Shown: in pieces, positions 1,673-56,979 of the stretch
Layout of the letters: each line of letters starts with the position of its first letter
Position numbering within the stretch: position 1 is the stretch's first letter
Source of the DNA: Escherichia coli
Lineage (GTDB): Bacteria; Pseudomonadota; Gammaproteobacteria; Enterobacterales; Enterobacteriaceae
Direction: 5' to 3' (one strand)
Length of the DNA stretch: 64,000 nucleotides
Assembly: GCF_046105845.1 (NCBI RefSeq)
Contig: NZ_CP151004.1
Program-made: the position numbers and the translations under genes
Notes under the pieces: generated by a model
Told to the model about the DNA's origin: nothing
Databases searched by the model: none
The model's input: the letters and a program-made list of their open reading frames with translations, nothing else

Positions 1673-3214
<1,542 letters not shown>

Positions 3215-3338
3215 AAAAGTTTGATGCTCAAAGAATTAAACTTCGTAATGAATTACGTGTTCACTCTTGAGACTTGGTATTCATTTTTCGTCTTGCGACG
3301 TTAAGAATCCGTATCTTCGAGTGCCCACACAGATTGTC

Positions 3339-3357
3339 TGATAAATTGTTAAAGAGC
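3339..3357 (-). promoter_or_regulatory. rrn leader boxA antitermination element
   Basis: Reverse complement GCTCTTTAACAATTTATCA matches the rrn leader boxA sequence; lies between P2 and the 16S 5' end. Confidence 0.8.
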
Positions 3358-3395
3358 AGTGCCGCCTCGCTTTTTCTCAGCGGCGCGGGGTGTGC

Positions 3396-3423
3396 ATAAT
3401 ACGCTTTCCCGCTACAGAGTCAA
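3396..3423 (-). promoter_or_regulatory. rrn P2 promoter (-35 TTGACT, -10 TATTAT)
   Basis: Reverse complement of 3396-3430 reads AAATGCTTGACTCTGTAGCGGGAAAGCGTATTAT, matching the rrn P2 core promoter as I recall it. Confidence 0.75.
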
Positions 3424-3514
3424 GCATTTATTTTTGCTTTCTCTGCCGGAATTCTCAGGAGAACCCCGCTGACCCGGCGGCGTGTTTGCCGTTGTTCCGT
3501 GTCAGTGGTGGCGC

Positions 3515-3566
3515 ATTATAGGGAGTTATTCCGGCCTGACAAGAGGAAATTTAAAATAATTTTCTG
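3515..3566 (-). promoter_or_regulatory. rrn P1 promoter with upstream AT-rich UP element (-35 TTGTCA, -10 TATAAT)
   Basis: Reverse complement reads CCTCTTGTCAGGCCGGAATAACTCCCTATAATGCGCCACCACTG, the classic rrn P1 core; AT-rich UP-element-like tract at 3547-3566 immediately upstream. Confidence 0.8.
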
Positions 3567-3591
3567 ACCGCGCATTTTTTATTCTTTATGC

Positions 3592-4137
3592 TTATTTCAG
3601 CGTCGGTTTGTCGGTTAAATGGGCGATTTCTCGGGCGAAATTCGCCACCTGCTCCCAATCGGTATAGACAACTTCTTTGCGCGTATCCGTTTCACCGCCT
3701 GACATCTTCATAATTAACTTGATCATAAAACGGTCGTACCAGCGATAACGTGGGTAACGCAGCGCCCCGGCAATGACCGCGCAGCGATCGGGACGCCATT
3801 GTGAACTCATCAGAAACTTCCGCGCGTAGCTGTTAGTCTGTGGAGTACGCTTCTCCGGTTTACGCGCCACCAGGTTTACGGAGTAAAAGGCGCTCGGCAT
3901 CGAATTCAGCCGCGTCGCATGCTTTTTAACAAATTCCTGGAACGCAGAGTGGTAGTGACCATAGCGAATAGAAGCACCAATGACCACACGGTCATAGTTT
4001 TCCCATTGTGGTTCTTCAATGCGGTGCACATTGGCGACATCCGCCTGGATCCCCAGTTCTTTCAGTTCCGAAGCCAGGTAGGAGGCAATCTCGCGCGTTT
4101 GTCCGTCCCTTGTTGAGAAAAGAATTAATGTTTTCAC
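3592..4137 (-). CDS. hemG: protoporphyrinogen IX dehydrogenase (menaquinone-dependent), flavodoxin-like
   Basis: 181-aa ORF; translation ([25 protein letters not shown]...) recognised as HemG; length matches reference. Confidence 0.93.
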
Positions 4138-4148
4138 GTATTACTCCA

Positions 4149-5600
4149 TCATTCACGCCAGAAAGTCGGGGTAAAGAGCACCAGCAATGTAAAGACCTCG
4201 AGACGACCAAACAGCATGTTGGCAATCAGGATCCATTTAGCCACCGGGTTCATACTGGTAAAGTTATCAGCAACCACGCCAAGCCCTGGCCCCAGGTTAT
4301 TCAATGTCGCAACAACTGAGGCAAAGGCAGAAAAGTCATCCACGCCCGTGGCGATAATCGCCAGCATACTGACAATAAACACCAATGCATAGGCGGAGAA
4401 AAATCCCCAAACGGCTTCGAGGATACGTTCCGGCAGTGCGCGATTCCCCAGCTTAATGCTATAGACGGCGTTCGGATGCACCAGTCGTTTCAGCTCACGG
4501 TTCCCCTGCTTAAACAGCAGCAGGATGCGGATCACTTTCAGGCCACCGCCCGTTGACCCGGCGCAACCGCCGATAAAAGCTGAACATAAAAGCAGTACCG
4601 GCAAAAAGAGCGGCCAGCGGGCAATGCTGTCAGTCGTAAACCCGGCGGTTGTCGCCATCGATACCACCTGGAAAAACGCCTGGTTAATTGTCATCAGCGC
4701 CGAACTGTAGACATTATGAAACCACAGTACGAGTGTACAAATAACCACCAGCGTAAACTGTACGCCGATAAACATGCGAAATTCCGGATCGCGCCAATAA
4801 ACCTTCAGACTACGCCCACTTAACAGTGAAAAGTGCAGACCGTAGTTACAGCCGGAGATCAGCAGGAAGATAGCAATGATAGTGTTAATAGTCGGGCTAT
4901 CGAAATAACCGATACTGGCATCATGTGTCGAGAAGCCGCCAATAGCGATAGTCGCAAAGCTATGGCCGATGGCATCAAAGGCATCCATTCCGGCAAACCA
5001 CAACGCCAGCGCACAGGCGACGGTCAGCAAGACATAAATCAACCACAGGGTTTTCGCCGTTTCCGCAATTCGCGGGCGCATTTTGTTATCTTTCAGCGGG
5101 CCGGGCATTTCTGCACGATAGAGCTGCATCCCACCCACGCCGAGGATAGGCAGTATCGCAACCGCTAACACGATGATCCCCATCCCGCCAAACCATTGCA
5201 GCATCTGGCGATAAAAGAGGATGGCATGAGGGAGCGAATCCAGCCCCACCAGCGTAGTGGCCCCGGTGGTGGTCAGGCCAGAGAAAGATTCAAAAAACGC
5301 ATCGGTAATCGTGAGGTTCGGGCTTTCCGAGAAGATAAAAGGGAGCGCACCGACACTACCCAGTACGGTCCAGAACAGCACCACTATCAGAAACCCCTCA
5401 CGGGATTTCAGTTCGCCCTTCTCTTTGCGGTTCGGCCACCACAGCATAGAGCCAATGGCGAGGGCGACAAAAAAGGTCTGGGTAAAAGCGCGGCCCGCTC
5501 CATCCCGGTAGATGAGTGCTACCAGCCCAGGGATAATCATGGTCCCTGAAAATAAGATGACCAGTAGTCCAACGATTCGGGTAATGGCGCGAAAATGCAT
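4149..5600 (-). CDS. trkH: Trk system potassium uptake protein
   Basis: 483-aa polytopic membrane ORF recognised as TrkH; conserved trkH-hemG arrangement. Confidence 0.93.
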   Translation of the reverse strand: MHFRAITRIVGLLVILFSGTMIIPGLVALIYRDGAGRAFTQTFFVALAIGSMLWWPNRKEKGELKSREGFLIVVLFWTVLGSVGALPFIFSESPNLTITDAFFESFSGLTTTGATTLVGLDSLPHAILFYRQMLQWFGGMGIIVLAVAILPILGVGGMQLYRAEMPGPLKDNKMRPRIAETAKTLWLIYVLLTVACALALWFAGMDAFDAIGHSFATIAIGGFSTHDASIGYFDSPTINTIIAIFLLISGCNYGLHFSLLSGRSLKVYWRDPEFRMFIGVQFTLVVICTLVLWFHNVYSSALMTINQAFFQVVSMATTAGFTTDSIARWPLFLPVLLLCSAFIGGCAGSTGGGLKVIRILLLFKQGNRELKRLVHPNAVYSIKLGNRALPERILEAVWGFFSAYALVFIVSMLAIIATGVDDFSAFASVVATLNNLGPGLGVVADNFTSMNPVAKWILIANMLFGRLEVFTLLVLFTPTFWRE

Positions 5601-16688: not shown

Positions 16689-18931
<2,243 letters not shown>

Positions 18932-52773: not shown

Positions 52774-52980
52774 AAAAAAACGCCTGCTCTTATTACGGAG
52801 CAGGCGTTAAAACAGGTCTGTATGACAACAAGTGGGTGCTTCACTCAACGTTGTGTCCATGGTGTCTGATGAGGCATAAGCGACATCTGTCAGTGGACGA
52901 TAAGCACCGTAAACGGCTCTGCGTCATTCCGGAGTTTATGAGGCACTAAGGCGAACATAAGAGATGGAATGAGCATCTAC
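52774..52980 (-). ncRNA. glmZ: GlmZ small regulatory RNA (SraJ/RyiA), activator of glmS translation
   Basis: Minus-strand sequence from GTAGATGCTCATTCCATCTCTTATGTTCGCC... to the terminator hairpin AACGCCTGCTCCGTAATAAGAGCAGGCGTTTTTTT matches GlmZ as I recall it; lies in the hemY-aslA intergenic region where glmZ is known to map. Confidence 0.85.
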
Positions 52981-56542: not shown

Positions 56543-56619
56543 TGGTCGGCGAGAGAGGATTCGAACCTCCGACCCACTGGTCCCAAACCAGTTGCGCTAC
56601 CAAGCTGCGCTACTCGCCG
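56543..56619 (-). tRNA. proM: tRNA-Pro (anticodon UGG)
   Basis: Reverse complement CGGCGAGTAGCGCAGCTTGGTAGCGCAACTGGTTTGGGACCAGTGGGTCGGAGGTTCGAATCCTCTCTCGCCGACCA. Confidence 0.93.
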
Positions 56620-56661
56620 AAATACTGCTTTTTGAATTTTTAGTTCAATTCTTTAAAGTCG

Positions 56662-56748
56662 TGGTGCGAGGGGGGGGACTTGAACCCCCACGTCCGTAAG
56701 GACACTAACACCTGAAGCTAGCGCGTCTACCAATTCCGCCACCTTCGC
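56662..56748 (-). tRNA. leuT: tRNA-Leu (anticodon CAG)
   Basis: Reverse complement GCGAAGGTGGCGGAATTGGTAGACGCGCTAGCTTCAGGTGTTAGTGTCCTTACGGACGTGGGGGTTCAAGTCCCCCCCCTCGCACCA, 87 nt class II tRNA. Confidence 0.93.
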
Positions 56749-56768
56749 ATTGTCACAACTTCTAATAA

Positions 56769-56845
56769 TGGGGTGGCTAATGGGATTCGAACCCACGACA
56801 ACTGGAATCACAATCCAGGGCTCTACCAACTGAGCTATAGCCACC
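56769..56845 (-). tRNA. hisR: tRNA-His (anticodon GUG)
   Basis: Reverse complement GGTGGCTATAGCTCAGTTGGTAGAGCCCTGGATTGTGATTCCAGTTGTCGTGGGTTCGAATCCCATTAGCCACCCCA, includes the extra 5' G typical of tRNA-His. Confidence 0.93.
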
Positions 56846-56902
56846 ACTACAAATCTTGTTACGCGGTATTACTACCACCGCAGCTCAAGCGCCGGGACTA
56901 AA

Positions 56903-56979
<77 letters not shown>

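Follow-up and report, generated by a model that had tools for sequence, protein, structure and literature searches.

Where does the control region of an rRNA operon end when a protein-coding gene lies directly in front of it, and has the promoter left a mark on that gene? The question is raised by the junction between hemG and the rrnA operon in a stretch of 64 kb of Escherichia coli DNA, which is referred to here as the window. In the initial annotation of this stretch, the upstream activating region of the rrn P1 promoter was proposed to run into the last codons of hemG, so that the same DNA would serve the protein and the promoter. We examined the locus, the Fis sites of the promoter, their conservation across Enterobacteriaceae, and the corresponding regions of the other rrn operons.

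The hemG-rrnA junction and its promoters

The gene order and the annotations match those of MG1655, in which trkH, hemG (4034608-4035153) and rrsA (4035531) follow one another, and therefore the window holds the trkH-hemG-rrnA locus of E. coli in reverse orientation, on its − strand. The hemG coding sequence (3592..4137, − strand) encodes 181 aa from a GTG start to a TAA stop at 3592-3594, as given by the ORF list, NCBIfam, RefSeq and the MG1655 annotation. Its product matched the NCBIfam equivalog NF008316 at 333.3 bits (cutoff 142) over residues 1-176 of 181, and by this equivalog match above the cutoff it is a menaquinone-dependent protoporphyrinogen IX dehydrogenase. The last 5 residues of HemG lie outside the profile, which comprises 177 positions. 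Upstream of hemG, the ORF list contains a 483-aa ORF on the − strand. Downstream, the 16S rRNA (rrsA; Rfam RF00177, 1577 bits) occupies 1673..3214 (− strand), 292 nt downstream of the P1 +1, and the 5' part of the 23S rRNA occupies 1-1226 (− strand, Rfam); two tRNAs were also found by Rfam in the rrn part of the window. The Rfam scan further matched StyR-44, a known rrn spacer element, at 1234-1342 (− strand, 125 bits), between tRNA-Ala and the 23S rRNA. In the whole window, it matched the small RNA 'Erse' at 18326-18577 (− strand, 320 bits), GlmZ at 52774-52980 (− strand, 218 bits) and four clustered tRNA genes at 56546-56979 (− strand).

When complete E. coli genomes were searched with a 1-kb query, a match was obtained in 5425 of 5426, and the RefSeq annotations at the matched positions are trkH, hemG and 16S rRNA. 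A 95-bp region was single-copy in 5425 of the 5426 genomes and at least 99% identical in 4227 of these. The 1-kb stretch at 3200-4200 showed 95-99% identity to most E. coli genomes and reached at least 99% with only 33 records. Its best matches were soil and environmental isolates, in contrast to the P1 upstream region, which is that of K-12. Judging from these sequence comparisons, the source strain appears to belong to a lineage that has been sequenced less commonly.

A consensus scan placed the core of rrnA P1 at 3515..3542 on the − strand, with the −35 hexamer TTGTCA (3537-3542), a spacer of 16 bp and the −10 hexamer TATAAT (3515-3520), matching the consensus at 11 of 12 positions. The −10 hexamer is followed by a GCGC discriminator (TATAATGCGCC) identical to that of rrnB P1, and the intergenic UP element (AGAAAATTATTTTAAATTTCCT; 3544..3565, −59..−38, − strand) is also the same as that of rrnB P1. 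Thus, both the A/T-rich UP element and the GCGC discriminator that mark an rrn P1 promoter were found. The core, the discriminator and the UP element are letter-for-letter those of K-12 rrnA, rrnB and rrnC. When we compared the window with MG1655 rrnA, the two were identical from −175 to +6, and the hemG neighbour with its stop at −86 and all four Fis sites were the same, leaving no difference between K-12 and the window in the P1 upstream region. Since the P1 core is that of K-12 rrnB and rrnA, we took the +1 of rrnA P1 to be the A at 3506, nine bases past the −10, after rrnB P1. In the numbering used here, position −N is window coordinate 3506+N and rests on this +1 assigned by homology. The second promoter, rrnA P2, was placed by a promoter scan at 3396..3423 (− strand; TTGACT, 16-bp spacer, TATTAT), and the P1-P2 tandem with a leader of 292 nt to the 16S start at 3214 fits the rrn layout, in which the leader is about 290 nt.

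On this numbering, the hemG TAA stop lies at −88..−86, 49 bp away from the −35 hexamer, in agreement with the distance of about 50 bp given in the initial annotation. A hairpin scan of 3200-4300, including the interval from the hemG stop to P1 (3543-3591), detected no terminator-like hairpin. Since a terminator is absent between hemG and P1, hemG and trkH transcripts may read into rrnA, which would be read-through of a weak trkH-hemG transcript.

Fis sites and the hemG reading frame

It is accepted that the UP element is bound by the RNA polymerase alpha subunit's C-terminal domain (PMC4696680). Fis sites lie upstream of the UP element in all seven rrn operons and act via contacts with the alpha C-terminal domain (PMC4696680). 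In the gel shifts of Maeda et al., a probe of about 500 bp carrying the rrnA promoter showed the number of Fis sites reported before (PMC4696680). We took the positions of the rrnA sites from the EcoCyc Fis sites as re-listed, and thus second-hand, in Table S3 of PMC3547798, where U00096.2 coordinates are used; the offset from U00096.2 to U00096.3 is 1977. The coordinate mapping is valid because the rrnB entries land at the classical positions −71, −102 and −143. In the same table, several 15-bp sites of rrnC, rrnG and rrnD stand one base off the G-N13-C anchor register (rrnC site I, for example, is catalogued at −70 and fits at −71), and one rrnG entry has garbled start and end coordinates.

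All four catalogued rrnA sites are on the − strand of the window. Site I (GAATAAAAAATGCGC; 3570-3584, −71; EcoCyc 4033184-98) is located in the intergenic spacer. Site II (GACGCTGAAATAAGC; 3590-3604, −91; EcoCyc 4033164-78) lies over the hemG stop codon and runs from the third base of Pro178 through the codons of Thr179-Leu180-Lys181 and the TAA stop into 2 nt of the spacer. Site III (GCCCATTTAACCGAC; 3610-3624, −111; EcoCyc 4033144-58) is wholly within hemG and reads in frame as the codons GCC CAT TTA ACC GAC (Ala172-His-Leu-Thr-Asp176). Site IV (GGCGAATTTCGCCCG; 3632-3646, −133; EcoCyc 4033122-36) covers hemG codons 164-169 and is weak and half-site-like. Each of the four starts with G at −7 of the site, and the spacing from site to site is 20, 20 and 22 bp, about two helical turns. 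Because the co-directional hemG gene ends at −86 without a terminator, sites II-IV fall within its end. The initial annotation had extended the overlap to the UP element and the Fis sites alike; it stands for sites II-IV, but the UP element (3544-3565) and the main activating site I (3570-3584) are in the spacer. The rrnA P1 Fis sites were reportedly footprinted by Hirvonen et al. in 2001.

The published Fis rules call for G at −7 or C at +7, a purine (R) at −3 and a pyrimidine (Y) at +3, no A at −4 or T at +4, and an AT-rich centre (PMC3547798). When we scanned −60..−194 with the strict rules, three matches were found, at −71, −111 and −123, where the background rate in the 64-kb window, 0.0018 per position, predicts about 0.2-0.3 matches over the stretch. 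Site I is a perfect match, with G-N13-C, −3R/+3Y and an AT centre. Both the G at −7 and the C at +7 are present in sites I, II and III, and site IV has the −7 G only. Sites I and III satisfy −3R, +3Y, the exclusion rule and the AT centre. Site II satisfies +3Y, the exclusion rule and the AT centre and has C at −3, and site IV, among −3R, +3Y and the AT centre, has −3R only; the exclusion rule is unbroken at all four sites. The match at −123 is an additional predicted Fis-like 15-mer (GCCCGAGAAATCGCC; 3622-3636, − strand), which was found by the rules and by the matrix described below and is absent from the EcoCyc list.

We also scored the region with a symmetric position weight matrix (PWM) built from 20 catalogued sites in the six other K-12 rrn P1 regions, with rrnA excluded. 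With a degenerate motif and a matrix built on only 20 sites, the scores were 8.5 for site I (p=0.0003), 7.5 for site III (p=0.0008), 6.9 for the −123 15-mer (p=0.0015) and 6.1 for site II (p=0.0028), the p values being relative to background. The positions −71, −91, −111 and −123 were thus all at p<=0.003, and about 0.3 such positions per 100 are expected by chance. Site IV scored −1.9 in its catalogued register at −133 (p=0.17) and 4.5 at −134 (p=0.0095). Since operon duplication has left rrnA site I with a right half homologous to that of rrnB and rrnC site I, the matrix is tested in a truly independent way only by the sites inside hemG. An additive energy matrix based on the Kd values of 58 in-vitro oligomers was considered and set aside, since these values clearly depart from additivity: a change in one half-site is tolerated, and symmetric changes abolish binding. 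The initial annotation had named a PWM scan of 3560-3660 as a check on its proposal, and an interval empty of Fis-like sites as the result that would refute it; the interval is not empty, because both the rule scan and the PWM scan find sites there.

Based on these observations, we are confident that the region is the normal upstream activating region of rrnA P1 and that the 3' end of hemG contains Fis sites II-IV. For this strain, Fis occupancy and the share of each site in activation are matters that we infer from the literature or by reasoning. RNA polymerase would occupy the core promoter (3515-3542) with its alpha C-terminal domains on the UP element (3544-3565), and Fis dimers would occupy the phased 15-bp sites at −71, −91, −111 and −133, with the dimer at site I touching the polymerase alpha subunit and thereby stimulating initiation. 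The last 18 codons of hemG and its stop would then carry two readings, one as codons and one as Fis sites. This conflict is solved cheaply, in that site II lies in a hypervariable and probably dispensable C-terminal tail, and the anchors of sites II and III are at wobble positions or are supplied by conserved Ala GCN, His/Gln CAN and Leu TTA codons.

In rrnB, the sites upstream of site I add little to activation. It could be argued that the overlap at hemG is merely positional, activation coming from the UP element and site I, and that the Fis-like sequences within the gene are incidental and of no selective value. The UP element and site I are indeed wholly within the 49-bp spacer, site I gives most of the Fis effect in rrnB studies, and site IV is a poor motif match. 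Whether the hemG sequences are incidental is a question on which the comparison among species bears directly.

Conservation of the sites at the hemG 3' end

One genome per species was scanned, which gave 80 Enterobacteriaceae loci, or 81 sequences with the window, from genera including Escherichia, Salmonella, Citrobacter, Enterobacter, Raoultella, Kosakonia and Buttiauxella. An rrn P1 promoter was found directly after hemG in every one of the 80 loci, and most contigs stop at P1, as expected for a repeated operon. All 74 sequences that were long enough have 595 bp between the hemG start and the P1 −35, with no indels. The length of HemG is 176, 177, 180, 181 or 183 aa and varies solely by in-frame shifts of the stop codon. 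In the longest form, of 183 aa, the stop codon is at −82..−80, and in none of the species examined does hemG extend to the UP element. The last 7 or so residues of HemG are hypervariable. A tail that is hypervariable and free of indels fits a putative need to hold the Fis sites in helical register with P1.

For this comparison, a PWM match was defined as a score of at least 6. Matches at exactly −71, −91 and −111 were present in 96%, 71% and 72% of species, respectively, and of the roughly 1970 positions in hemG and trkH these three rank highest. The density of matches was 0.020 per position in −160..−80, compared with 0.0048 over the remainder of hemG and 0.0035 over trkH. At −133, the position of site IV, a match was found in no species among the 80, and site IV is not conserved outside Escherichia. 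The −123 15-mer was matched in 11% of species, and we rejected it as an extra site, as it is uncatalogued and E. coli-specific. Further PWM matches were seen at 3706-3735 (−206, −218 and −222; hemG codons about 137-143) in 25-49% of the 80 species, in an AT-rich stretch that codes for FMIKLIMKM. These could be extra distal Fis sites, comparable with those that rrnE and rrnH have at −170 and −181, or an effect of amino-acid composition.

The conserved columns are those of the Fis motif. In site I, −78 is G in 100% and −64 is C in 99% of sequences, −74 is a purine throughout, A is absent from −75 and T from −67. In site II, the G at −98 (−7 of the site, 3604) is conserved in 96% and the C at −84 (+7, 3590) in 100%, and in site III the G at −118 is conserved in 100% and the C at −104 (+7, 3610) in 98%. 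Because site II is represented by 67 distinct 15-mers and site III by 61, this conservation is not mere recent ancestry.

Two of these anchors, −98 and −104, are the third positions of hemG codons 178 and 176. Codon 178 takes the forms TCG, TAG, ACG, CCG, GCG, TTG, ATG and CAG and ends in G in 78 of the 81 sequences, and codon 176 is represented by 14 different codons for about 12 amino acids and ends in C in 79 of the 81. Among the 40 variable codons of hemG, defined as those in which the major amino acid accounts for less than 70%, the third base is most conserved in codons 176 and 178 (0.98 and 0.96, respectively; median 0.57). Leu174 is encoded by TTA in 66 of the 71 sequences that code for Leu at this position, compared with a share of 9% for TTA among the Leu codons elsewhere in hemG. 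In addition, 19 of the 22 HemG forms of 177 aa end in TAG, a rare stop, so that the −7 G of site II is retained. Bases of the regulatory motif are thus conserved beyond the need of the protein at codons 176 and 178, at the TTA of Leu174 and at the TAG stops. When blanket synonymous identity was calculated for codons 164-181, it was 0.50-0.54, with no excess over the gene mean of 0.51. The regulatory constraint is real, but this negative test and the unconserved site IV limit it to a small number of anchor bases in sites II and III.

These data bear on the merely positional overlap from both sides. The lack of blanket synonymous constraint over codons 164-181 and the lack of conservation of site IV are what incidental sequences would show. 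However, sites II and III keep their positions in 71-72% of the 80 species in spite of 61-67 distinct sequences, their G and C anchors occupy wobble or non-coding positions and are conserved at 96-100% while the amino acids vary, and not a single indel occurs in the variable tail. We therefore regard a purely positional overlap as unlikely.

The conservation at the hemG 3' end might instead reflect the protein, its codon usage or a signal at the 3' end of the mRNA, such as a terminator or a processing site, rather than Fis. Part of site III is in fact fixed by the protein, in that Ala172 (GCN), His/Gln173 (CAN) and the second base of Leu174 set key bases of the site, and the codon usage of the family is GC3-rich and favours C and G in third positions. 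Such a constraint does not account for codon 176, which ends in C in nearly all sequences with its 14 codons, or for codon 178, which ends in G even where it is the TAG stop, and the rare TTA at Leu174 runs against the codon bias. The conserved columns also reproduce the Fis pattern, that is, G-N13-C, R and Y at ±3, and no A at −4 or T at +4. As no terminator-like hairpin was found between hemG and P1, an RNA signal at the 3' end fails to account for the conservation as well. We consider this explanation very improbable.

Finally, the conserved region might serve a factor other than Fis, such as H-NS, Lrp or a component that co-localises rrn operons. H-NS and Lrp have been reported at rrn promoters too, and Gaal et al. 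showed that the region of the rrnD Fis sites together with P1 is needed for rrn co-localisation even without Fis (PMC5110994). Against this, the match of the conserved columns is specific to the Fis motif, the catalogue lists the sites under Fis, and the data gave no sign of a second motif. It is thus scarcely probable that the conservation is due to another factor in place of Fis, and by analogy with the work of Gaal et al. there is a small chance that a second factor also reads the rrnA upstream DNA.

Taken together, conservation of third positions at the Fis anchors in 81 sequences shows that these bases of the reading frame are under constraint, which supports the proposal that the same DNA is both coding and regulatory. 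Based on these observations, we suggest that in Enterobacteriaceae the Fis-site array of rrnA P1 has probably shaped the evolution of the HemG C-terminal tail, whose residues and length drift while the DNA register, the wobble anchors, the TTA codon and the TAG stop are kept.

Other rrn operons and the meaning of the overlap

The rrnB P1 promoter resembles rrnA P1 in that the core and the UP element are identical, site I is at −71 and a co-directional gene lies upstream. This gene, murI, ends at −82, and sites II and III of rrnB, the textbook case (−102 and −143), are inside murI, as rrnA sites II-IV are in hemG. The two operons differ in that rrnB has three sites spaced by 31 and 41 bp, whereas rrnA has four spaced by 20, 20 and 22 bp, and in the upstream gene, the sequence beyond about −70 being unrelated. 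In rrnH, the stop codon of gmhB, at −77, is touched by site I, and gmhB contains the sites at −91, −134 and −181. By eye, no terminator hairpin was seen in the K-12 murI-rrnB and gmhB-rrnH intervals. In rrnG, on the contrary, a hairpin terminator (about −146..−119) comes after the end of clpB at −152, and the Fis sites are intergenic. The neighbours of rrnC, rrnD and rrnE are divergent (yieP, yrdA and purH, starting at −189, −189 and −331, respectively), and there is no coding overlap in −60..−150. The preceding gene thus houses Fis sites in three of the seven K-12 rrn operons (rrnA, rrnB and rrnH), and the overlap at hemG is not special, because the same overlap is present at rrnB with murI and at rrnH with gmhB.

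The arrangement itself is already known, being catalogued in EcoCyc from published footprinting and present in essentially every E. coli genome. A literature search on hemG, rrnA and Fis together returned nothing relevant, and PMC5371410, a paper on RNase III, names hemG-rrsA for leader processing only. In the papers searched, we found no description of the codon-level signature made up of the wobble anchors, the TTA codon and the TAG stop. This signature is a small extension of the known arrangement and involves no new mechanism, and beyond correct annotation the overlap matters little. It does mean that recoding, deleting or tagging the hemG 3' end also alters activator sites of an rRNA operon, and the same caution applies to murI at rrnB and gmhB at rrnH. 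For the family, the footprint seen across species is a clean, small example of regulatory constraint acting on wobble positions and on a stop codon.
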